DNA from: Actinomycetota bacterium
Lineage (GTDB): Bacteria; Actinomycetota; Actinomycetes; S36-B12
DNA length: 64,000 bases
Assembly: GCA_030681835.1 (NCBI GenBank)
Contig: JAUXRN010000032.1
Span: forward strand, 2,487 to 66,486
Reading direction: 5' to 3'
This document shows, one piece after another, positions 11,672 to 27,433 of this stretch (position 1 is the stretch's first letter; every line of letters starts with the position of its first letter). The notes beneath the pieces are model-generated. The model was given only the letters and a program-made list of their open reading frames with translations, was not told the DNA's origin and made no database searches. Made by a program: the position numbers and the translations under genes.

Positions 11672-13171
11672 GTGACCACGATCGACCACTGGATCGGTGG
11701 CCGGACCGCCAGCGGCATGTCGCAGCGGACCAGCACCGTGTTCAACCCTGCAACGGGGGCGCCGTCCGCGGAGCTGCGCCTAGCGTCGGCATCGGACGTC
11801 GCAGACGCCGTGGGTGTCGCGGAAGCGGCGTTCGAGGGCTGGGCGCAGTCTTCGATCTCCAAGCGGGCGAAGGTGCTCTTCGCATTCCGTGAACTGGTGA
11901 ACAACCATGTCGACGAGTTGGCGGCGTTGATCGTGGATGAGCACGGCAAGGTGTTCAGCGACGCGCAGGGAGAGGTCCAGCGCGGACTGGAGGTCATCGA
12001 GTTCGCCTGCGGTATCCCCAGCTTGCTCAAGGGCGACTACAGCGACCAGGTCTCCAGTGGAGTCGATACCTTCTCTTTCCGCGAGCCGCTTGGTGTCGTC
12101 GCTGGCATCACGCCGTTCAACTTCCCCGTCATGGTCCCGATGTGGATGTACCCGGTGGCCATCGCCTGTGGCAACACTTTCATCCTCAAGCCCTCAGAGC
12201 GGGATCCGTCCGCATCGATGCTGGTTGCTGACCTCTGGCAGCGTGCTGGACTGCCGGACGGCGTCTTCAACGTCGTCCACGGCGACAAGGTGGCCGTCGA
12301 CGCACTCCTGGATGACCCGCGGGTCGCGGCCGTGTCGTTCGTCGGGTCGACGCCGATTGCCCAGTACATTCATGAGCGCGGCAGCGCCAACGGCAAGCGC
12401 GTGCAGGCGCTCGGCGGAGCCAAGAACCACGCCATCGTCATGCCCGACGCGGGCATCGACTTCGCGGCCGACCACCTTTCGGCTGCTGCATTCGGCTCGG
12501 CTGGCGAGCGCTGCATGGCGATTTCCGTAGCCGTTGCGCTGGGGTCGGCGGCGGATGCAATCGTCGAGGCGGTCACCGCCAGGGCGCTCGCTGTGAAGGT
12601 GGGCAACGGCCACGACGCGTCGCGCGAGATGGGTCCCGTCGTGTCGGCGGCCGCCCAGCAACGCATCAAGCGGCTGATCGGCACCGGAGAGGCACAGGGC
12701 GCACGCATCGCGGTCGACGGTCGTGACCTCGTGGTACCCGGCTACGAGAATGGGTTCTTCGTCGGACCGACGGTCCTGGACGACGTCACGACAAAGATGG
12801 ACGTGTACCAGGAGGAGATCTTCGGCCCGGTCTTGTCGGTCGTGCGCGCGGACAACATCGATGATGCGATCGCCATTATCAATGCGAATCCCTTCGGCAA
12901 CGGCACCGCCATCTTCACTGCCAGTGGTGAGTCCGCCCGACGATTCCAGCGGGGGGTTCACGTGGGGATGATCGGGATCAATGTTCCTGTTCCTGTGCCG
13001 ATGGCCTTCTACTCGTTTGGTGGCTGGAAGAACTCGTTGTTCGGTGACAAGCACGTGCACGGTCCCGAGGGCGTGTCGTTCTACACCCGTGCCAAGGTCG
13101 TCACAAGCCGCTGGCCTGAGGTGGCGGCATCGGCCGGTGCCAACTTCAACTTCAGTACTACAGCCCGCTGA
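11672..13171 (+). CDS. iolA: CoA-acylating methylmalonate-semialdehyde dehydrogenase
   Basis: 499 aa aldehyde dehydrogenase with ITPFNFPVMVPMWM, a FILKPSERDP core and a catalytic Cys region GERCMA. GTG start. Confidence 0.9.
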   Translation: MTTIDHWIGGRTASGMSQRTSTVFNPATGAPSAELRLASASDVADAVGVAEAAFEGWAQSSISKRAKVLFAFRELVNNHVDELAALIVDEHGKVFSDAQGEVQRGLEVIEFACGIPSLLKGDYSDQVSSGVDTFSFREPLGVVAGITPFNFPVMVPMWMYPVAIACGNTFILKPSERDPSASMLVADLWQRAGLPDGVFNVVHGDKVAVDALLDDPRVAAVSFVGSTPIAQYIHERGSANGKRVQALGGAKNHAIVMPDAGIDFAADHLSAAAFGSAGERCMAISVAVALGSAADAIVEAVTARALAVKVGNGHDASREMGPVVSAAAQQRIKRLIGTGEAQGARIAVDGRDLVVPGYENGFFVGPTVLDDVTTKMDVYQEEIFGPVLSVVRADNIDDAIAIINANPFGNGTAIFTASGESARRFQRGVHVGMIGINVPVPVPMAFYSFGGWKNSLFGDKHVHGPEGVSFYTRAKVVTSRWPEVAASAGANFNFSTTAR

Positions 13172-17988: not shown

Positions 17989-19149
17989 ATGCGTACGCAC
18001 CGCAGGTTTGGCGTCGGGATCATCGGCGCGGGATGGCTCGGCGATGTGCACGCCCGGGCTTGGACCCGGCTGAGCCACCACTACCCCGAACTCGGCCTGA
18101 CTCCGGACTTGGTTGCCGTGGCCGACCCGTCGGAAGCTGCGCGTCGTAACGCCATCGATAGGCACGGTTTTCACCGTGCGTACGAAGACCCGTACGAACT
18201 CATCGCCGACCCCCGGGTCGATGTGGTCAGCGTGACAGCCCCCAACCTGCTGCACCGTGATCTCGGGGTTGCGGTGGCTCGTTCGGGCAAGCATCTATGG
18301 ATCGAGAAGCCGGTCGGTCTGACAGCCGACGATGCGCGCGCCGTCCGCGACGCGGTCGCGGACGCTGGTGTTCACGCTGTCGTCGGCTTCAACTATCGCG
18401 CCGTCCCTGGAATTGTCGCTCTCCGCGAACTCGTGGCGACTGCCCAGATCGGACGGCCGACACACGCACGAATCCGCATGCTTACCGACTACGCCGCACA
18501 TCCCCTTGCGCCGCTCAGCTGGCGATACACCTTGGCCGAGGGCGGGCATGGAGTCCTTGCGGATCTGGCCTCGCACGCGGTCGACCTCATCCGGCATGTA
18601 CTTGGTGGCATCGCCAGTCTTGTTGCCGTGACCGGTGTTTTCGTCCCGCAGCGGCCCCTTGCGCCAGAAGGAGCAGCCCACTATTCGCTAGCGGAGGCAG
18701 GTTCGCCGTTCGGGGAGGTCGAGAATGAGGACTACGTCTGCGCGCTGCTTCGCACCGTCGATGGCGTCCTGGTTACGCTCGAGTGCAGCAGGGTGGCGGT
18801 GGGCGAGCAAAACAACTACGGGCTGGAGATCCATGGCTCTCAGGGCCTGGTCTCCTGGGACTTTCGCACTCCTGGGGAGATTCTGCGTTCCGTCGGTGTC
18901 GGGTATTCCAATCAGCCGGTTGAGCGTTACCTGACAGGACCCATCGACGGCGACTACGGGCGCTTTCAACCTGGTGCGGGCATCGCGATGAGCTACGACG
19001 ACACAAAGGTCATCGAGCTCGCCCAGTTGGCCGGCGCGGTGCTGGGCGGGCCGACGGACGGTCCGACCCTTGACGACGCGATTGCGTCCGCGATCGTCCT
19101 GGAGGCCCTGGTGCGCTCGGCACAGGCCAAGGCATGGATTGACCTGTGA
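17989..19149 (+). CDS. Gfo/Idh/MocA-family oxidoreductase (second inositol dehydrogenase-like)
   Basis: GVGIIGAGWLGDVH Rossmann motif and EKP motif (WIEKPVG). Last gene of the iol plus-strand operon. Confidence 0.8.
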   Translation: MRTHRRFGVGIIGAGWLGDVHARAWTRLSHHYPELGLTPDLVAVADPSEAARRNAIDRHGFHRAYEDPYELIADPRVDVVSVTAPNLLHRDLGVAVARSGKHLWIEKPVGLTADDARAVRDAVADAGVHAVVGFNYRAVPGIVALRELVATAQIGRPTHARIRMLTDYAAHPLAPLSWRYTLAEGGHGVLADLASHAVDLIRHVLGGIASLVAVTGVFVPQRPLAPEGAAHYSLAEAGSPFGEVENEDYVCALLRTVDGVLVTLECSRVAVGEQNNYGLEIHGSQGLVSWDFRTPGEILRSVGVGYSNQPVERYLTGPIDGDYGRFQPGAGIAMSYDDTKVIELAQLAGAVLGGPTDGPTLDDAIASAIVLEALVRSAQAKAWIDL

Positions 19150-19465
19150 TTGCGCACACTCGATTCGATTGTTCTTCGGCGTGTTTCTGGGTTGCTGCCC
19201 GGATGGGACTGACGTGCCTGAGTGCGTGGGCGGTCGTTCGCCAGTCCATTGCCGGCATGGACTTCTCGGAATGATGAGCGGTTCCCACGAATTGCCCGGC
19301 GGGTTCGGGGACCTCAGAGTGGTGACTTCTCCGCAATGTCGGACAACTCGTCATTGTTGTCACCTTGCTGGAGAGTGAGGATTGAAGGCGTCACTCGATC
19401 ATTCGGGCGCGAGCACCAAGCGAAGCTTGCGAAGAAGCAGATAACTGGACACATTCCCGACTGCC

Positions 19466-19552
19466 GCGCGCACCTGGACGACTGCACCCAGCAAAGCTTG
19501 GATCCCGTGGGACATCGGGTCACTATCCTGCCCATCAGCATGGGCGGTGCTA
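19466..19552 (+). pseudogene. remnant of the 3' end of a DUF5615/PIN-like toxin gene
   Basis: It translates to RAHLDDCTQQSLDPVGHRVTILPISMGGA, compared with RTHLETGALVTVDPVGHRVTVLPISMGGA at the end of the intact gene (22571-22948). No N-terminal part and no partner antitoxin are present. Confidence 0.45.
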
Positions 19553-19598
19553 ATGTCCACGCGCCGACGCGATCGAATCTACGCATGGACGCCCACCC
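19501..19598 (+). repeat. 98-nt degenerate direct repeat, copy A
   Basis: Hand alignment to 22895-22992 gives 76/98 identities without gaps, including a 24-nt perfect block TCCTGCCCATCAGCATGGG and ATCTACGCATGGA. Confidence 0.6.
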
Positions 19599-19627
19599 GG
19601 AGGCCCTGAAGTCGTGCGTGAGTCACG

Positions 19628-20317
19628 TCACAGGTCTGCGTCACGAGCTGACCGGCGGCCTCCAGGCAGCCCCAAGAGGTCTGCGATGCGTGCCAGGATC
19701 GGCTCGCGCTCGCTGTCGTTGTGTGCCGCCGGGAAGCGATTGCCCTCGAGCGCGAGAGCTCCGTAGACGGGCTGGAGTCCTTGAATCAGACGAGTCACAT
19801 TGCGCAAGGCGGTGTCGTGCGGAAGGTCGATCCAGCGGAATCCCTTTCGTGCGCTCGTCACGCCCTCGTCCCAGGAGCGAAAGTTCGCGTGTTCTGCAAC
19901 TCGGTCCTTCTTCGCTTGGGTCCTTCGTCGTCCTTCTAGGCGCTTGGTCGCGGTTTCGGGACTTACCTCTAGGAGGATGCATGACGGATCAACACGCTCT
20001 CGGAAGGCGGCGAGTTCAGGGTTGCGGGATGGCGCCACGAGCCACGGGCCCGCAGCGATAAGGACGGCATCGTCACTACGCAGCTGGGAGCTTAGAAACT
20101 CGCGCTCCAAGCGGGCTATCTCGACGAGGGCCGCTTCGCGGCCAAGTTTGAGAAACAGCCCGTAGATGTGTTTCCCGATCATGTTGTCCTGGTGCTGGGC
20201 CGCAATCCAATCGTCGGAGTCCAAGGTCGTGATGTCAGACCCCCATCGCTTGCGCGCCGCGGCTGCGACGTTGGATTTCCCGGCGCAGGAGAAGCCGATC
20301 AGCACGACGGTGGGCAT
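19628..20317 (-). CDS. P-loop NTPase, shikimate-kinase-like fold with C-terminal extension
   Basis: Walker A is GFSCAGKS directly after the start (MPTVVLIGFSCAGKS). An LDSDD motif sits where shikimate kinases have DTD. ILLEVSPETATKRL resembles the SK lid region, but the SK GGG motif is absent. An alternative GTG start lies at 20365. Confidence 0.6.
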   Translation of the reverse strand: MPTVVLIGFSCAGKSNVAAAARKRWGSDITTLDSDDWIAAQHQDNMIGKHIYGLFLKLGREAALVEIARLEREFLSSQLRSDDAVLIAAGPWLVAPSRNPELAAFRERVDPSCILLEVSPETATKRLEGRRRTQAKKDRVAEHANFRSWDEGVTSARKGFRWIDLPHDTALRNVTRLIQGLQPVYGALALEGNRFPAAHNDSEREPILARIADLLGLPGGRRSARDADL

Positions 20318-20392
20318 GGGACCAGCCTGACAGCCGGATCCTGCCGAGAGAGTAAGAATACTCACTCAGACGTTGGAGAATGGGGGTGGACT

Positions 20393-21304
20393 TTGGTTTC
20401 GACGTTCCACATCTTGCGTCTGCTTTCCGGCTTCGCCCGGTCGGATACTGACGAGGCACGCACTTTGGTCACGTGGCAGAGCGCGGCAGGTGACTACCGG
20501 TCGGTTCCGCCCGAGGAGTGGACGACGTTCAATTTTGCGTTGCGCATCGCACGGCTCGGGACGCTCGTTGGTCATGACAAAATGACCGCCAGCCTTCACA
20601 ATCGATCACTTGAGGGCGGAGACACTCGCACGCGTAGGCCGCCGAGTGGTGCCGATGTCGAGCTTGCTATTCAGACTCCTGTTGGTTGGGTCAACCTCGT
20701 GCTTCAAGCGAAGCGTGCAGAGCATCGACGAGATAGTTCGCTTGCCTTCCCCTCCTGGAAAGCAGACCAGGTCCGGTCGCTTCGAGCGTGGTGCAGAGAT
20801 CGAACGGCGAGCGAAGGATCCGAGCGCCAACCTGCGATGCTTCTGTATCTCCCCTTGATTGGCCCGATCGACCGTGAATCCGACGGGAGGGTTCTCCAGG
20901 GCCTCTGCTGCTACGGCGCTTTGTGGCAGACCCCTGTAGCGAGCACGTTCGCCTTCGGTACCTCTCCCGAGTTTTCGCCTCTGGGCATCTCGATCGTCCC
21001 GTTCTGGTCTAGCGGCCGACTTCCAGGGTTGCTGGCCAGCGACCGCGCGACCTTCCGAGAGGCGTGCCCTCGCATGCATCCAATCGAGTGTCTGGCGTGC
21101 CCCTATTCCTCGGGCATGCGGGCGATCAGTTCGCCGATCGATTGGGGAGGTGTCTTGTATCACCCCGACATTCCCGAATGGGCACGTCAGGTTGAACAAC
21201 GAGCGAACGACCCGCGGAACTACGGCCCCGACCAGGAGCCATCGGATGAACAGACTCCGCGGCTGTCAGTCGTGATGCGCTCACCGCAGGACGAACCCGG
21301 CTAA
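20393..21304 (+). CDS. hypothetical protein with Mrr-like PD-(D/E)xK (QxK) nuclease core motif
   Basis: SGADVELAIQTPVGWVNLVLQAKR resembles the Mrr_cat signature (D...QAKR). The C-terminal ~190 aa is unrecognised and contains Cys/His (HPIECLACP). Start is proposed at TTG 20393 after GGAGAATGGGGGTGG, because the upstream part of the raw ORF overlaps the kinase gene. Start is uncertain. Confidence 0.45.
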   Translation: MVSTFHILRLLSGFARSDTDEARTLVTWQSAAGDYRSVPPEEWTTFNFALRIARLGTLVGHDKMTASLHNRSLEGGDTRTRRPPSGADVELAIQTPVGWVNLVLQAKRAEHRRDSSLAFPSWKADQVRSLRAWCRDRTASEGSERQPAMLLYLPLIGPIDRESDGRVLQGLCCYGALWQTPVASTFAFGTSPEFSPLGISIVPFWSSGRLPGLLASDRATFREACPRMHPIECLACPYSSGMRAISSPIDWGGVLYHPDIPEWARQVEQRANDPRNYGPDQEPSDEQTPRLSVVMRSPQDEPG

Positions 21305-21485
21305 CGGACCGTCTCATCTGACCCTCTGCTCGTGCCGTTGGTGCGGAGATCGTGGCCGACTTCGAGTCGTTCCTTCTCGAGGTCGGCGACTGGCGGGCCC
21401 TCGAGCCGCCGACTCGTTGGCGCCACTAGCCCTCCCCGACGGCTGGGCGACCTAGTCGAGATCGACAGTGGGCGCGATCCCGCGT

Positions 21486-22274
21486 TCAGGGGCGGTGAAA
21501 GGACACCGAAGGGTCGGCTCCGAGGAGCTGCCGGGCCAGTGCCCGGATGTGCCCGGGTAGTTCCGTCAGCGAGGTCATGGCTGGCACGTCTTCGGGCTGT
21601 CCACCTCGACGATGGCGGTCGATCCACACGGGCGTCAGGCCCGCCGCGCGTGCCCCGATCGCGTCAGCGGCGAGGTCGTCGCCGACGTACACGACCGCCG
21701 AAGCGGGCAGGTGCAGGGTCGAGCAGAGGGACTCGAAGGCGAGCTTGTCCGGTTTGAACGCCGGCAGGGCGCTTGCAGCCAGGACCGCGTCGAATTCGTC
21801 GAGGACGCCCATGCGGCGGAGCTTGTCCTCCTGCTGGTCCTGCTCGCCGTTGGTGAGCACGGCCAGCACCATGCCCATCGAACGGAGCTCGCTCAGGGTG
21901 GCCGTCACGTCGGGGTAGGGCAACCATGCACTGCGGTAGTGATCCAGGTAGTCGGCGAAGAGGGCATCGACGTCCTGAGCTCCGGACTCGAGGTCGATGG
22001 AGTCGAGCAGGCCGCGCATTCGCCGTCGGCGCTGCTCCTGGAAGTTGATCGAACCGGCGGCGTACTCGCGGAAGTGGACGTCCTCGAGCTCCAGCCACGC
22101 GGCGCCTGGGTCCCCTGGGTGGGTCCAATCGCGCGACGACAGGAAACTGACGATGGCTGAGCGCGCAGCACCCGCGTGGTCGAAGAGCGTTCCATCGAGG
22201 TCGAATCCCACCGCTGCAACCACGAGGGCAGCGTATGTCGTCCAAACAGAGGTTCTCCCACGAGCCGACGGCAT
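21486..22274 (-). CDS. HAD-superfamily hydrolase
   Basis: Motif I FDLDGTLFD, motif II VLTNG, motif IV YVGDD. The N-terminal start is uncertain. Confidence 0.8.
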   Translation of the reverse strand: MPSARGRTSVWTTYAALVVAAVGFDLDGTLFDHAGAARSAIVSFLSSRDWTHPGDPGAAWLELEDVHFREYAAGSINFQEQRRRRMRGLLDSIDLESGAQDVDALFADYLDHYRSAWLPYPDVTATLSELRSMGMVLAVLTNGEQDQQEDKLRRMGVLDEFDAVLAASALPAFKPDKLAFESLCSTLHLPASAVVYVGDDLAADAIGARAAGLTPVWIDRHRRGGQPEDVPAMTSLTELPGHIRALARQLLGADPSVSFHRP

Positions 22275-22346
22275 GGGCGGAGCTACTGCTGCGGGGCACC
22301 AGCCACGACGTAGTCCCGTGACGCCCCCTGCCGCTATCGTTCAGGC

Positions 22347-22574
22347 ATGGCTCCACTTGATCGCGTGACCCGGTCCATCGACGTGATGGGCGGCAAGCCG
22401 TGCGTGGGCGGCACCCGCGTGACGGTCGGCACCGTCGTCGGCCTCGTTGCGGCGGGCAAGTCGATCGCGGAGATCCTGGACGCCTACCCGTACCTGGACG
22501 AGCAGGACGTGATGCAGGCCCTCGCGTACGCCGCCTGGCGAGTCGAGGAGATCGAGATCCCGATCTCCGCATGA
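22347..22574 (+). CDS. DUF433-family antitoxin-like protein
   Basis: GGKPCVGGTRVTVGTVVGLVAAGKSIAEILDAYPYLDEQDVMQALAYA is the canonical DUF433 pattern. Confidence 0.85.
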   Translation: MAPLDRVTRSIDVMGGKPCVGGTRVTVGTVVGLVAAGKSIAEILDAYPYLDEQDVMQALAYAAWRVEEIEIPISA

Positions 22575-22948
22575 GGTTCCTCGTCGACATGAACCTCAGC
22601 CCGAGGTGGATCGACTTCCTCACAGCCGCAGGTCACGAAGCTATCCACTGGATCGACGTCGGCGAGCCAAACGCCCTTGATCGCATGATCCTGGAGCACG
22701 CCCACCGCAACGGGCAGGTCATCCTCACCCAGGACCTCGACTTCGGCACCCTGCTCGCGGTTGGCGGCCTGGCGACACCGAGCGTGATCCAGTTCCGGGC
22801 GCAGGCAGTCCTGCCCAGTGACGTAGGCGAGCAACTGCTGGCCGCCATCGCTGTGGCGCGCACTCACCTCGAGACCGGGGCGCTGGTCACCGTGGATCCC
22901 GTAGGGCATCGAGTCACAGTCCTGCCCATCAGCATGGGTGGTGCTTAG
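22571..22948 (+). CDS. DUF5615 (Mut7-C/PIN-like) toxin-like protein
   Basis: MRFLVDMNLSPRW...ILTQDLDFG. ATGA overlap with the DUF433 gene. Confidence 0.85.
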   Translation: MRFLVDMNLSPRWIDFLTAAGHEAIHWIDVGEPNALDRMILEHAHRNGQVILTQDLDFGTLLAVGGLATPSVIQFRAQAVLPSDVGEQLLAAIAVARTHLETGALVTVDPVGHRVTVLPISMGGA

Positions 22949-22992
22949 GTCCGGGCGGAGCATGAACCGGATCTACGCATGGAGTCCCGCCC
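22895..22992 (+). repeat. 98-nt degenerate direct repeat, copy B (last 54 nt of toxin gene plus 44 nt downstream)
   Basis: See copy A. 76/98 identities by hand. Confidence 0.6.
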
Positions 22993-23104
22993 TTTCCGTC
23001 GCCCTTTCTCGGTGTCGCTGGGTGCGACTCGGGGTGGCGCTCGGCGTCACGAAACCCTTTGATACGCAATAGCTCCTAGGGGCGGATCCATGCGTGGGGG
23101 CAGT

Positions 23105-23123
23105 CTCGTAATGCGTAGGTCCG
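23105..23123 (+). other. short copy of tRNA-Thr anticodon-loop/stem core (att-like)
   Basis: CTCGTAATGCGTAGGTCCG. The first 15 nt are identical to 26055-26069, and similarity ends after ~19 nt. Confidence 0.4.
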
Positions 23124-23167
23124 ACTGGGAACCGTTGCCGTTGTAGCCCAGACGAGGATCGGGCTCG

Positions 23168-24574
23168 TCAAGTGCTGACGTCTGGTGCTGGACTTTGCGC
23201 GTCGGCCGGAACCAGTTTGAGTAGGCGGTCACGGAGGCATTCGCCTACGGCGAGCGGGTCGGGGCCGCAGGTGGGGTCGGCGACGACGCTGATGGTCAGC
23301 TGCCCGGCGTAGGTGATGCTCGCGAAGGCGATCGTCGTGTTGCCTTGGTTGAGCACCAGCGGGGTGATTCGGGTGACCGGTGTGCCGACGAGTGCCACGG
23401 GGTGGGTGGGTCCAGGCAGGGCGGTGGCGAACGTGTTGACAAGGCGCTGTCTGTCGGTGAACCAGCGCACGAGGTGCAGCGCGTGCAGGACCCGGAACGC
23501 GGCAAGCGCCAGCGGTAGCGACGCTCCGGCGTCTTCGCCATCGCCTTCCAGCCGGGCGTGCCGCCAGGCGGCGACCGCAGCGATCCTGTGGGTGACCGGA
23601 CCTCGGGTGGGTACTGGGGTGGGCATGACTCCCACCGCGTTGGTCGCGGCCGCGTCAACCAGGCCGGCCCGGACTGCGGTGCTGCGGTGTCGGGCGGCGA
23701 CAGGGACGGACACGACGACCGGGTCAAGGTCCTGCCCGCGTTGTGCTGCCTGCTCGGCGAGGATTTCCGCGAGGACTGTGAGGACGGCGTCGTTGAGCGA
23801 CCCTCCTGAGCCGCGTGCGGCACTGCGCAAGGGCGCTTCGGGCAGGGTGACGGCTGCGTGGCGGCGCGCAGGGCCAGTGCGGCGGTTCAATGTGCTGCGC
23901 GGGGCGAGGGTGCCGTGGCCGATACCGAGCTCGTGCAGCGCGGGGCGCAAGGATCGGGCTACCGACGGTGCTCGCCCAAGTGCACGCAATCTCCCGGCCC
24001 ACGCGTTCCGGGCCAGTGCCGGCCACGACGGCATGGTGCTGGGCAGTCTCTGAGTGCCCGTGTCAGGACCGGTCCCCGTCATTACCGGTGGATCGGGCCG
24101 TGCCAGGGCTGTGAGGAGTTGGATGCCGGCGAGGCCGTCGGCCAGAACGTGGTGCAGCACGACAAGCACGGCGACGGGCGTGCCCTCCTCATCGGTGAGG
24201 ACATGGGCGGCCCATGGCGCTCTCCCGGGCGGGAACGGCTGGCTCATGAGCACGGTCGCGCGGGCGAGGAGGCTCTCGTCAGCGTGCCCGACCTGGTTCT
24301 GGATGGATACGTGGTCGCGAACCGAGCCGTTATCGGCTAGCCAGATCGGGTTCCCGGCCCCGAACGGCGGCTTCACCGGAAATCGGGCCAGGGATGGCAC
24401 TCTGGCGAGCCGTCGACGGAGGTGGTCGACCAGCTCCGCGGCGGTAAGAGACGTGGGCCCGAGGTGGAGCAGGCCGGCGATGTGTTGCGGCACCGGGCCT
24501 ACGTCGGCCTGCCACTGCATGAGGTCGCCGCCGGACAATCGAGCGATCCGCCTACCGTTCTGTGGCTTCGACAC
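23168..24574 (-). CDS. wax ester synthase/diacylglycerol acyltransferase (WS/DGAT) family
   Basis: 468 aa with the catalytic HHxxxDG motif (HHVLADG). Confidence 0.85.
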   Translation of the reverse strand: MSKPQNGRRIARLSGGDLMQWQADVGPVPQHIAGLLHLGPTSLTAAELVDHLRRRLARVPSLARFPVKPPFGAGNPIWLADNGSVRDHVSIQNQVGHADESLLARATVLMSQPFPPGRAPWAAHVLTDEEGTPVAVLVVLHHVLADGLAGIQLLTALARPDPPVMTGTGPDTGTQRLPSTMPSWPALARNAWAGRLRALGRAPSVARSLRPALHELGIGHGTLAPRSTLNRRTGPARRHAAVTLPEAPLRSAARGSGGSLNDAVLTVLAEILAEQAAQRGQDLDPVVVSVPVAARHRSTAVRAGLVDAAATNAVGVMPTPVPTRGPVTHRIAAVAAWRHARLEGDGEDAGASLPLALAAFRVLHALHLVRWFTDRQRLVNTFATALPGPTHPVALVGTPVTRITPLVLNQGNTTIAFASITYAGQLTISVVADPTCGPDPLAVGECLRDRLLKLVPADAQSPAPDVST

Positions 24575-24580
24575 GATCGC

Positions 24581-25204
24581 TCATCCACGCCTAGCTGGAA
24601 GCTCGGCCTGGGTCTCTGCTCGGCTGCGGATTCCAACGAGCATGCGTCTCATCATCGGGAAGTCGCCCACCTCCATGAGCATGAGGGTCACGGGCAGGAA
24701 GGGACCGAGCTGATAGCGGGCTTTGAGTCGAGTCACGAGTCTCGTTCCACCAGCGTCATCGGCGGTGAGTTTCCACGCCCACGTCGAGTCAGGCTTGCTC
24801 CAGACCAGCACCGACGGTTCAACGGCCTCAGCGACGACGAACGAGTTCTGGTCGTTGGCAGGCGAGGCCATGGGTGCGGCCACGTCACCCACGGCGACTG
24901 ACGCGAAGTCGGGCAGGATCTCAGTGGCGCTCGGACGCCCCAGATTGTCGAGCAGGTCGTAGGAGTAGAAGCCTGCTCGTCCGAAGCCCACCTGGAGTAG
25001 CCACGGCCACACCCGACCCGGCGGCGCGGCGATGGAGACGGCACGGGTCGCGGTGAAAGCGGCGCCATCGAGGAGGTCATCTCCGGGCATCGGCCTATTG
25101 ATCTCCTCGTCCGTGGCACCCCACCGCAGGTGCCAGGACCGGTACTTCGCTCCCGCTGTCGCTAGGCATAGGGCGACGCACGTTGCCAGTAGGAATCGGC
25201 GCAC
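24581..25204 (-). CDS. SRPBCC-family protein with N-terminal hydrophobic segment
   Basis: 207 aa. The RVWPWLLQVGFGRAGFYSYDLLDN pattern is recalled from actinobacterial SRPBCC/polyketide-cyclase-like proteins. It lies 6 nt upstream of WS/DGAT. Confidence 0.55.
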   Translation of the reverse strand: MRRFLLATCVALCLATAGAKYRSWHLRWGATDEEINRPMPGDDLLDGAAFTATRAVSIAAPPGRVWPWLLQVGFGRAGFYSYDLLDNLGRPSATEILPDFASVAVGDVAAPMASPANDQNSFVVAEAVEPSVLVWSKPDSTWAWKLTADDAGGTRLVTRLKARYQLGPFLPVTLMLMEVGDFPMMRRMLVGIRSRAETQAELPARRG

Positions 25205-25388
25205 GTCATTCAGGCTAGTGAGGGGGTCGAGACGTGTCCCGTCGTCTCGACCGTCAACGCACGACGATCCCCGCTCGACGCATGACCTGCCGCAGGGGCC
25301 GGGGCTGAAGGAAAGGGGTGAGGCTCTGCGCCGTGCAGGCCTGTTTTGGTTCCGTGCACGGGCCGATATTCGGGCCTATCGTTGTCTC

Positions 25389-25670
25389 ATGCAGACGCTT
25401 CCGATCTCCAAGGTGAAGGACCGGCTCAACGATCTGGTCGATGCCGCGTCGATCACGCACGAGCAGGTCACGATCACCAAGAACGGCACCCCGGCTGCGG
25501 TGCTGATCGGTATGGATGAGTGGGAGTCGCTGCAGGAGACGCTGTTCTGGCTGTCCCAGCCTGGGATCCGAGAGTCGATAGGTGAGGCGAGGGCAGATGT
25601 GGTCGCGGGCCGCGGCCACACCCAGGAGCAGATCCGGGCGGAGTTCAACGTCCCGACCCGTGATCGGTGA
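25389..25670 (+). CDS. Phd/YefM-family type II antitoxin
   Basis: MQTLPISKVKDRLNDLVDAA...VTITKNGTPAAVLIGMDEWESLQETL is the canonical pattern. Confidence 0.85.
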   Translation: MQTLPISKVKDRLNDLVDAASITHEQVTITKNGTPAAVLIGMDEWESLQETLFWLSQPGIRESIGEARADVVAGRGHTQEQIRAEFNVPTRDR

Positions 25671-25933
25671 GTTACGAGGTCGTCGTGACCGCCACGGCGA
25701 GGCGGGACCTGCAGCGAATCGCGCCGCGCATCGTCCCGGCGATCGTCGAGTTCGCGTTCGGTGACCTGGCCGCCGCGCCGCGCCGCGTGGGGAAGCCGTT
25801 GCAGCGGGAGCCCGAGGGCCTGTACGGCGCCCGACGCGGCCCCTACCGGAACTTGTATTCCGTCGATGACGACGCCAACCGAGTCGAGATCCTGCGTATC
25901 GACCACCGTTCCGACGTCTACCGAAGCGACTGA
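25667..25933 (+). CDS. RelE/ParE-family type II toxin
   Basis: 88 aa. GTGA overlap with the antitoxin. It has ARRDLQRI...YRNLYSVDDDANRVEILRIDHRSDVY. Confidence 0.8.
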   Translation: MSYEVVVTATARRDLQRIAPRIVPAIVEFAFGDLAAAPRRVGKPLQREPEGLYGARRGPYRNLYSVDDDANRVEILRIDHRSDVYRSD

Positions 25934-26054
25934 CCGAGGACGGCCGGAATGCCCCGGAAATGACCCGGAACAAGCACGGTGCATGGCCGGACATGGCTGG
26001 GTAGGCCCGGGGTATGCACGAGTAAGAGCGTGGCCTTAGGGGGCCGGCGAGCGG

Positions 26055-26099
26055 CTCGTAATGCGTAGGCCCGGGGTTCAAACCCCCGAGGCGGCTCCA
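26055..26099 (+). pseudogene. 3' half of a tRNA-Thr(CGU): anticodon loop to CCA, no 5' half (attachment-site remnant)
   Basis: It reads CTCGTAA (loop, U33, anticodon CGT, A37), TGCGT, AGGCC (variable), CGGGG-TTCAAAC-CCCCG (T arm), AGGCGGC, T, CCA. No complementary acceptor, D arm or anticodon 5' strand lies upstream. Confidence 0.6.
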
Positions 26100-26328
26100 C
26101 GGGAAATCCGTTGATCCCCACGAGCATGACCGGCGCCTGACCGTCGTGGCCTTGACCGGCCGCGGCCGGGTCCTGGCCGAATCCGCCATCCGGTTCCGCC
26201 CCGCCTACCTGGCCCACATCACTCGCACCTGGTCCGGCGACGAGCGATCCATCTTCGCGGACCTGGTGACGCGCTTCGCGGACGAGATCATCGCCACCCC
26301 ACCCCTCGGCCTTGAGGAGCCCGGATGA
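26100..26328 (+). pseudogene. MarR-family regulator, N-terminally truncated (wing plus C-terminal helices only)
   Basis: The frame reads ...SVDPHEHDRRLTVVALTGRGRVLAESAIRFRPAYLAHITRTWSGDERSIFADLVTRF. The DxxDRR...LT..G wing motif begins immediately after the tRNA fragment. The stop overlaps the next gene (ATGA). Confidence 0.65.
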
Positions 26329-26957
26329 ACATCACCGTCCTTGGCGCGACAGGGCGCACCGGCAGCCCGTTGGTGGAGGAGCTGCTCCGCCGCGGGCACA
26401 CCGTCACGGCCCTGGTCCGTGACCCCGCCAAGCTCGGGCCGGTCGTCGACCGGGTCCGCGTCGTCGTCGGCGACAGCACCGACCCCCGCGCCGTCGACGA
26501 CGCCTTGCACGGCGCCGACGCCGTCGTATCCGCACTCGGCCCCACGAGCAAGGAACCGGACCTGCACACCCGCACTGCGCAGGCGCTGATCGGGGCCATG
26601 CCCGCGGCCGGCGTGACCCGGTTCGTCGGTGTCAGTGGCGCAGGGATCGACGTCCCGGGGGACCGCAAGGGCACCCGCGACAAGATCATTTCCACCCTGA
26701 TCCAGCGACTCGGCGGAGCGGTCGTGGCCGACAAGCCCCGCGAGTACTCCGCGTTCGCAGCCAGCGACCTGGACTGGACCCTGGTGCGCCCGCCTCGCCT
26801 GATCGACGGGCCGGCCACCGGGCGGATCACCCACGACGCCCACGCGCCCGGTCGTGCAACCACGATCAGACGGGCCGACCTCTCGGTCTTCTTGGCTGAC
26901 GTACTCGACCAGCACCTCTACCCGCGGCAGGCGCCCTTCGTCTCAGCGGCGAAATAG
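26325..26957 (+). CDS. NAD(P)H-binding NmrA/SDR-like protein
   Basis: MNITVLGATGRTGSPLVEELLRRGHTVTALVRDP Rossmann motif. Confidence 0.85.
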   Translation: MNITVLGATGRTGSPLVEELLRRGHTVTALVRDPAKLGPVVDRVRVVVGDSTDPRAVDDALHGADAVVSALGPTSKEPDLHTRTAQALIGAMPAAGVTRFVGVSGAGIDVPGDRKGTRDKIISTLIQRLGGAVVADKPREYSAFAASDLDWTLVRPPRLIDGPATGRITHDAHAPGRATTIRRADLSVFLADVLDQHLYPRQAPFVSAAK

Positions 26958-27433
26958 TCTCCCTGGAGCACACTAGGGACGGTTCGGTCAGTCGCTGGGT
27001 TCGATCTCGCTGGGTCGCCAGGCTCGACCTGGACGACCTCGGCGAGGTACGCCCGGGCCGACGGTGCAGAACGGCACGGGCAAGCCCTCGCCGTCCTAGA
27101 TTCGTGGCGATCGTGACGGGACCGGCATCCAGGCCGCGTCCCAGCCGCCGGCCCGCCCGGGCGAGCGGCGTGCCCACCCAGACCGTCGACCTCGCGTCTT
27201 GCCTACGGTGCATCACCGAGCCAGCTATCGGGGCGCCGATGTCTCTCAATGCGATACATGGTCCGGCCGCGTCTAAGCCAGCAACGAGGCTGAGTGGCCT
27301 CGGGAATCCGGAGGCGCCATCAGGCTGCTAGTGGTTGGTTCAGCGGAAGTGACGGGGTTACGCTCTGCTCCCGGACGCTGGGGCGACCTGCCGCCCATGA
27401 TGATGATGCGACGAGCCTGAGAGGAGCGCAACG

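Follow-up and report, generated by a model that had tools for sequence, protein, structure and literature searches.

The window, a 64,000-nucleotide (nt) stretch of an actinobacterial contig, carries two divergent open frames that make up positions 19628-21304 (Table 1). The minus-strand gene encodes a kinase-like P-loop protein, in the following called the kinase, and the plus-strand gene, ORF2, encodes a protein with a candidate nuclease core. Both open reading frames are real genes and both are accessory; they belong to known superfamilies, yet to families that are rare, unnamed and uncharacterised. An earlier interpretation made from the letters alone (the sequence-only reading) had seen in them an anti-phage defence module composed of an NTPase and a nuclease. 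Our analysis indicates instead that kinase and ORF2 are probably independent accessory genes that became neighbours by chance in a mosaic, slightly low-GC islet, with ORF2 as a stand-alone, DUF6615-like nuclease candidate.

Table 1. Features at and around the divergent gene pair, numbered from the first letter of the window (aa, amino acids; GC3, G+C fraction at third codon positions)
Feature	Position	Strand	Description
Kinase-like gene	19628-20317 (coding 19631-20317, stop codon 19628-19630)	-	ATG at 20317; 229 aa; P-loop kinase with predicted shikimate-kinase fold; rare accessory family
ORF2	20393-21304	+	TTG start; 303 aa; rare DUF6615-like family; predicted PD-(D/E)xK-type core in the N-terminal half, Cys/His-containing C-terminal half
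ORF2 codons D88 to K107 (D-x16-Q-A-K)	20654-20713	+	Proposed active-site strands beta2 and beta3
Divergent intergenic region	20318-20392	.	75 nt between both start codons; most AT-rich stretch of the pair
Left direct-repeat copy	19465-19598	+	Relic of DUF5615 toxin-gene 3' end plus downstream sequence
HAD-family hydrolase gene	21486-22274	-	Convergent with ORF2; Pfam Hydrolase 1.9e-25, HAD_2 4.9e-20; GC3 0.81, host-like composition
DUF433 antitoxin-like gene	22347-22574	+	Pfam DUF433 3.6e-22
DUF5615/PIN-like toxin-like gene	22571-22948	+	Pfam DUF5615 8.6e-23; PIN_10 1.4e-7
Right direct-repeat copy	22859-22992	+	Intact toxin-gene 3' end plus downstream sequence

The plus-strand gene had been described from the letters as an open reading frame of about 300 aa located 28-76 nt from its neighbour, which agrees with the gene model adopted here. 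The frame is open from 20168, the TTG at 20393 lies 12 nt after a GGAGAA at 20375-20380, and the alignments of homologues begin at about residues 3-12 of the version starting at this TTG. An open frame of 303-378 codons is improbable by chance at 62% G+C. ORF2 had no match in Pfam, NCBIfam, PHROGs or PADLOC, and a word-indexed search of 5.8 billion proteins also returned none. By exhaustive HMMER search, 41 homologues at E<=1e-3 (26 of these at E<=1e-10) were identified among 1.84 billion representative sequences; most are 290-320 aa long and can be aligned almost from end to end, ruling out that ORF2 is an orphan. The existence of about 40 homologues shows that ORF2 is a gene. One of the 41, the automatic gene call P0008 (155 aa), is ORF2 itself, restricted to residues 149-303 (window 20837-21304); because the homologues place the gene at about 303 aa from the TTG at 20393, the putatively catalytic half is absent from the public annotation. 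ORF2 was found neither in 40 relatives from the genus and order nor in 400 genomes across the phylum, and the protein had no match in plasmid or phage collections. Collectively, these homologues define a family of proteins of about 300 aa that combine a predicted restriction-endonuclease-like E/D/QxK core with a novel C-terminal half and are missed by PADLOC and by word-based searches.

The 36 family members in the alignment A3 are divergent, with a mean column identity of 22%. Invariant positions in this alignment are E41, E42, T45, H69, E74, S85, D88, Q105, A106, K107, W122, L151 and Y152, while N47, Y119, P147, N153, C172, P196 and E232 are nearly invariant. Three of the invariant residues, D88, Q105 and K107, lie within SGADVELAIQTPVGWVNLVLQAKR, encoded at 20645-20716, in which the sequence-only reading had pointed to a resemblance with the Mrr/PD-(D/E)xK signature; the nucleotides it gave correspond exactly to the codons from D88 to K107. 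The retention of these three residues across all 36 divergent members supports the view that the D...QxK stretch is not a chance resemblance.

The canonical PD-(D/E)xK core follows the order alpha-beta-beta-beta-alpha-beta, where helix 1 bears an acidic residue, strand 2 starts with an aspartate and strand 3 holds the (D/E/Q)xK motif. The AlphaFold model of ORF2 computed on A3 (predicted local distance difference test, pLDDT, 81, and 85-95 over residues 1-150; predicted template-modelling score, pTM, 0.83) contains a helix at 41-58 with E41/E42, a strand at 64-69 ending in H69, a strand at 89-94 with D88 just before it, a strand at 99-108 with Q105 and K107, a helix at 124-141 and a strand at 146-152. 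Read from this predicted secondary structure, the N-terminal half of ORF2 is supported as a PD-(D/E)xK-type core with the conserved residues at the canonical places. The residues proposed to bind metal and to catalyse are E41/E42 from helix 1, D88 where strand 2 begins, and Q105-x-K107 within strand 3; together they would be an Mrr-like D...QxK variant. The Mrr catalytic domain has been described as 'PD-QXK' (PMC11037411), so a glutamine at the ExK position is compatible with activity.

Structure searches with Foldseek returned Rep15 as best PDB match of the ORF2 model (probability 0.99, E 1.8e-3), a protein whose fold has been described as similar to the Holliday-junction resolvase Hjc (PMC9308819). 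Hjc, HincII, a cap-snatching endonuclease and Cas4 reached only E 0.4-1, and the best matches to true nucleases had E 0.5-1 with template-modelling (TM) scores of 0.26-0.31. Nearly all weak named fold matches in PDB and BFVD belong to the PD-(D/E)xK group (Hjc, HincII, bunyavirus cap-snatching endonuclease, Cas4, DUF2800 and entries carrying the name 'PD-(D/E)XK nuclease superfamily'), and the BFVD matches taken separately are mostly PD-(D/E)XK, Hjc or Cas4 proteins at E 0.08-1.6. Sequence searches of the PDB with ORF2 and with its profile gave nothing meaningful.

The suggested relation to Mrr stands only in part: the D...QxK motif is invariant and the predicted fold is PD-(D/E)xK-like, but membership in the Mrr family does not hold, since ORF2 had no match to Pfam Mrr_cat (PF04471) at E<=1. 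The genome itself is without any Mrr_cat match. Direct comparison of A3 with an alignment of Mrr_cat proteins from related genomes by hhalign gave 0.5% probability over 11 columns round LQAKR, and the assignment of ORF2 to Mrr_cat was rejected. Both groups share the D-x16-Q-A-K-R on a beta hairpin, which reads DG...LQAKRY with the same spacing in the Mrr_cat members of related genomes, and, like the type IV restriction nucleases with Mrr_cat, ORF2 relatives occur in restriction and defence neighbourhoods. In contrast to Mrr_cat, the ORF2 family has the invariant motifs PPEE.TT.N, H-x4-E-G-G and LLYN as well as a C-terminal half of about 150 aa, and it does not have the Mrr-type N-terminal DNA-binding domain. 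The structural neighbours Hjc (E 0.5-1) and Rep15 differ from ORF2 by TM scores of 0.26-0.38 and sequence identities of 9-17%; moreover, ORF2 has double the length and carries an additional N-terminal helix as well as the C-terminal half, and Rep15 is a eukaryotic Rab effector without catalytic residues.

A distant relation was found instead with DUF6615 (PF20320). Fourteen of the 36 ORF2-family members match this Pfam family at positions 26-135, all below the cut-off of 23.8 bits and with a best E of 9e-4, and the window's ORF2 itself does not match it at E<=1. The borderline DUF6615 protein L058 from another actinobacterial genome was aligned by hhalign with the ORF2-family profile over 165 columns (91.7% probability, E 8e-7), and the two share the motifs E..T, GAD.E, QAKRL, YxLYN and P.xCLA. 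By these sequence comparisons the ORF2 family is a distant outlier of DUF6615, and its only link to that family is the hhalign alignment with this borderline protein. Pfam gives DUF6615 no function, and no paper mentioning it was found in the literature search.

The relatives of ORF2 often adjoin known defence or mobile genes, which is suggestive of an association with defence. In three Corynebacterium loci (L036-38) the relative is directly followed by genes for AbiLi (E 6e-71) and AbiLii (E 4e-22), with a ThsA-like SIR2 gene on its upstream side. In other loci the relative is found near a PDC-S06/AAA_13 ATPase (L032), a GmrSD-type enzyme (PADLOC Orf5/HEC-06, E 3e-78) together with an ISL3 transposase (L054), a HamB/PDC-M23B-like helicase with an M78-helix-turn-helix regulator (L050), an Eco29kI restriction-modification system with Vsr (L051/52), a WYL regulator with a DDE transposase (L056), or a NucC-like DUF6602 protein (L048). 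The AbiLi/AbiLii pair of the Corynebacterium loci is complete and starts about 370 nt downstream of the ORF2 relative on the same strand (L036:6001-9270, L037, L038). Two further Corynebacterium loci, L032 and L034, have kept the ORF2 relative without AbiL. The Corynebacterium site, which lies between a DcuC/ABG transporter gene and OCD/LTD genes, looks like a defence hotspot.

Two other loci deserve mention for the P-loop proteins encoded beside the ORF2 relative. At L072 the relative P0011 sits between the gene fragments L072:2-1438 and L072:2671-3534 (P-loop motif GSFGSGKSH), which resemble the C-terminal part of a BREX/Pgl-type methyltransferase (PglX) and a PglY/BrxC-type P-loop ATPase; if these resemblances hold, P0011 would lie inside a BREX-like locus. 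At L074 a divergent gene for a 346-aa protein (L074:3-1040, minus strand) lies upstream of the relative P0014; its P-loop GVNGAGKTTLL is reminiscent of ABC/AAA_21-type ATPases, and it is unrelated to the window's kinase family. None of the three neighbour proteins from L072 and L074 found a match in the PDB sequence search.

The minus-strand gene is open over 19628-20365, with a GTG at 20365 as the most upstream start. The ATG at 20317 is preferred, because all seven members of the family begin with M-(P/A/G)-T-V-V. The features reported for this protein from the letters were all recovered: the Walker A motif directly after the start, the shikimate-kinase-like spacing, the LDSDD and the lid, as well as the C-terminal extension, which is 60-90 aa long and conserved in the family. 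In the seven-member alignment A1, the Walker A GFSCAGKS (residues 8-15), D33 and D35 of the DSDD, the lid arginine R130 and the LIAAGP with A88-A89-G90-P91 are invariant, and F146, S148, W149, W162, N173 and Y185 mark the conserved C-terminal region from about residue 146 onwards. A GGG motif after strand 3, which binds shikimate, is a feature of shikimate kinases. Its absence had been correctly noted; the invariant AAGP stands in its place and pairs with G-G when the family is aligned to shikimate kinases by HMMER.

The predicted fold is that of shikimate kinases. The AlphaFold model of the kinase (pLDDT 87.6, pTM 0.85) had shikimate kinases at all top 24 places of the Foldseek results (E from 4e-8, target-normalised TM 0.52-0.77), and the family profile also found shikimate kinases as best matches among PDB sequences (E 5e-5). 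The protein passed Pfam AAA_33 (PF13671; 37.3 bits against a cut-off of 27, E 4.3e-9, residues 20-159) but failed the Pfam family SKI (PF01202; 14.8 against 22.1 bits) and the NCBIfam shikimate-kinase model (PRK13947; 15.3 against 204 bits), and the true aroK of the genome is encoded on another contig (SKI 151 bits at G000:C190:8807-9268). With AAGP in place of GGG, these results led to the rejection of the kinase as AroK; they support a protein with the shikimate-kinase fold that is not a shikimate kinase. It shares with AroK/AroL the fold, the N-terminal Walker A, the DxD of D33 and D35 and the arginine-bearing lid, and differs from them by the invariant AAGP, by the additional conserved C-terminal cap and by its sporadic occurrence in mobile or defence-like DNA. 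A search of PHROGs returned nothing useful. The kinase probably acts as a stand-alone ATP-dependent phosphotransferase on a shikimate-kinase scaffold, in which D35 could serve as base activating the acceptor hydroxyl group, and the C-terminal cap, rich in invariant aromatic residues, would together with the AAGP replace the shikimate site and bind a different substrate.

The kinase family is rare, with seven proteins among 5.8 billion clusters; it was not found in 32 other genomes of the genus, and the protein had no match in plasmid or phage collections. Its closest relative, with 67% identity, is encoded on an ENA metagenome contig (L001), and the next one, with 34%, in an Obscuribacterales metagenome-assembled genome. 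The loci of kinase relatives comprise nine independent ones (L002 and L004 being the same contig), of which only four, L001, L002, L005 and L015, are informative for the family; the rest were read as AroK. Among the latter are the Chloroflexota proteins L006-L013, which were rejected as family members and taken as ordinary AroK, their identity of about 30% being confined to the first 130 residues and their genes lying in a conserved chromosomal operon. All four informative loci lie in mobile or defence-like DNA, and their neighbours differ each time: Mrr_cat, AbiJ_NTD4, HIRAN, SocA_Panacea and insertion sequences at L001; a conjugative element with relaxase, coupling protein, single-stranded-DNA-binding protein and RadC at L002; a tyrosine integrase at L005; and a Schlafen/AlbA_2-HATPase-Fic-like protein with an M78 peptidase at L015. 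No recurrent neighbour family was found beside these four relatives. At L001, a 308-aa protein with a weak Mrr_cat match and the AbiJ_NTD4 protein are encoded at 424-2185, 4-5 kb from the kinase gene; this Mrr_cat protein is unrelated to ORF2 by sequence as well as by profile.

Whether kinase and ORF2 form a functional pair was decided mainly by their co-occurrence. No ORF2 relative was found in the kinase-relative loci (L001, L002 and L005-L015, which amount to nine independent loci) by tblastn and by profile hmmsearch on six-frame open reading frames, and the kinase profile, used at maximum sensitivity, found no kinase in the 26 loci of ORF2 relatives. The gene divergent from the closest kinase relative encodes an unrelated 189-aa protein; this neighbour and its counterpart at the second-closest relative are related neither to ORF2 nor to one another. 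Beside the ORF2 relatives of the metagenome loci no recurrent neighbour family appeared, duplicate contigs aside. The Corynebacterium loci share as neighbours a secreted or membrane protein of 211 aa and a membrane protein of 87 aa, a recurrence that reflects local chromosomal synteny; Corynebacterium neighbours of 207-216 aa were considered as possible kinases and rejected as unrelated secreted or membrane proteins. The PADLOC check proposed with the sequence-only reading gave no PADLOC-DB family at E<=1 for the kinase or for ORF2. Since the two families were never found together elsewhere, they probably do not represent a two-gene system, and the NTPase-plus-nuclease module proposed from the letters is not borne out; lack of co-occurrence was among the outcomes that the sequence-only reading had itself named as refuting it. 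Each family taken separately lies, on a qualitative reading, in defence or mobile-type DNA in most loci with usable flanks, L073 being an exception.

The DNA around the pair is consistent with a mosaic history. The G+C content of 19628-21304 is 61.8%, compared with a window mean of 66.4% (standard deviation 2.6 for stretches of the same length), which corresponds to the 4th percentile. The low-GC islet recognised in the sequence-only reading is hence real, though modest, and the line counts behind it were exact, with 30/60 G+C at 20341-20400, 36/60 at 20581-20640 and 43/60 in the iolA line 12301-12360. The kinase gene has a GC3 of 0.72 and ORF2 one of 0.67 (0.62 in its N-terminal part), while the flanking genes range from 0.73 to 0.89. 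The degenerate direct repeats and the adjoining toxin-antitoxin module, here the DUF433/DUF5615 pair, could be confirmed as well. The repeats are 72% identical across 134 nt, roughly 100 nt of which form a tighter core, and the repeated unit comprises the DUF5615 toxin gene's 3' end together with about 45 nt of downstream sequence. In the left copy the frame still reads DPVGHRVTILPISMGGA, whereas the stop codon and everything upstream are lost. The repeats enclose the kinase gene, ORF2, the HAD hydrolase gene and the DUF433/DUF5615 pair; because the HAD and toxin-antitoxin genes are host-like in composition, only kinase and ORF2 look foreign in this segment. The repeats may record an insertion into, or a recombination at, the toxin-antitoxin locus. 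Definition of an empty site via the flanking oxidoreductase gene in related genomes was given up, since orthologues of this gene share only 55-60% identity and the gene order downstream of it is not conserved, which leaves no insertion boundary to be drawn. ARAGORN found no tRNA across the whole window and Rfam gave no match at E<=1 in 18500-27000, although a tRNA half of 45 nt may be too short for either search. Searches of family libraries with an antisense open reading frame at 20606-21199 and another one at 19222-20061 gave nothing credible.

A new anti-phage module made up of the two genes, with the kinase as sensor of infection or as regulator of the nuclease-like effector, would fit the divergent arrangement around a common intergenic region, the similar atypical composition of two accessory genes and the presence of relatives of both in mobile or defence-like DNA; the ORF2 relative at L074 even has a divergent upstream P-loop gene, though not of this kinase family. 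However, co-occurrence in none of the kinase-relative or ORF2-relative loci, either by sequence or by profile, the unrelated divergent partner of the 67% identical kinase and the absence of a PADLOC model for either protein make such a module improbable. Even less credible is that one or both frames are non-functional, either chance frames or decaying pseudogenes in a degraded islet. The weak coding signal of ORF2, the automatic call that kept only its C-terminal 155 aa, the toxin-gene relic beside the pair and the exchange at the nearly invariant N153 could be read in this way, but both frames run uninterrupted over the full length seen in their homologues, every nearly invariant position checked apart from N153 is retained, and the structure predictions for both proteins are confident.

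A more serious competitor, though still rather unlikely, is that ORF2 has the restriction-endonuclease-like fold but serves outside defence, either as non-catalytic binding or scaffold protein or as a housekeeping or mobile-element enzyme of repair, recombination or resolution. In favour of this, Rep15, which ranks first among the structural matches, is not an enzyme and is followed by Holliday-junction resolvases, the relative at L073 lies among ordinary chromosomal genes, several relatives adjoin transposases, and PADLOC has no match. The acidic and lysine residues, invariant exactly where the canonical catalytic residues lie (E, D, QxK), speak against a non-catalytic protein; a housekeeping role is hard to reconcile with the patchy distribution (0/400 genomes of the phylum) and with the repeated adjacency to AbiL, GmrSD, restriction-modification and SIR2 genes.

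The interpretation as two independent accessory genes with ORF2 as stand-alone nuclease candidate is itself weakened by several points. The ORF2 model has no significant match to a solved PD-(D/E)xK nuclease, the clustering of its invariant residues is read from secondary structure only, and a catalytically dead scaffold is possible because the top match Rep15 is not an enzyme; in addition, the nearly invariant N153 is replaced by leucine in the window's ORF2. The suggestive association of ORF2 with defence is qualitative and has no background rate behind it, many homologue contigs are short, and at L073, a genome contig of 538 kb, the neighbours are ordinary metabolic and regulatory genes. 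Co-occurrence was assessed on a small sample, namely four kinase-family loci that are informative and about 12 independent loci of ORF2 relatives whose flanks are usable, and the shared 75-nt divergent promoter region together with the similar atypical composition is compatible with co-acquisition or local co-regulation of kinase and ORF2.

Under the favoured interpretation of independent genes, ORF2 would most likely cut nucleic acid in a Mg2+-dependent manner, its C-terminal half might select or sense the target, and the protein would act alone, as a restriction-like defence gene or as a gene in conflicts between mobile elements. As a tentative and more specific proposal, the ORF2 family could be a previously unrecognised single-gene anti-phage nuclease, sporadically present in actinobacterial defence islands, with the kinase as separate mobile-element cargo that acts on a substrate other than shikimate.

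The locus also illustrates that a plausible pairing of an NTPase and a nuclease seen in a single genome has to recur before it counts as a system; this one did not. What remains is a candidate for a single-gene defence nuclease, a type that surveys of defence islands regularly find. The seeming orphan ORF2, left with an empty word search and a 155-aa gene call, was rescued by exhaustive profile search and structure prediction. The kinase family poses a second small puzzle, a shikimate-kinase scaffold with remodelled substrate site that travels on mobile DNA. If ORF2 is active, a rare, compact and stand-alone nuclease family would join the restriction-like defence of high-GC Gram-positive bacteria, and the DUF6615 group would obtain its first functional handle.

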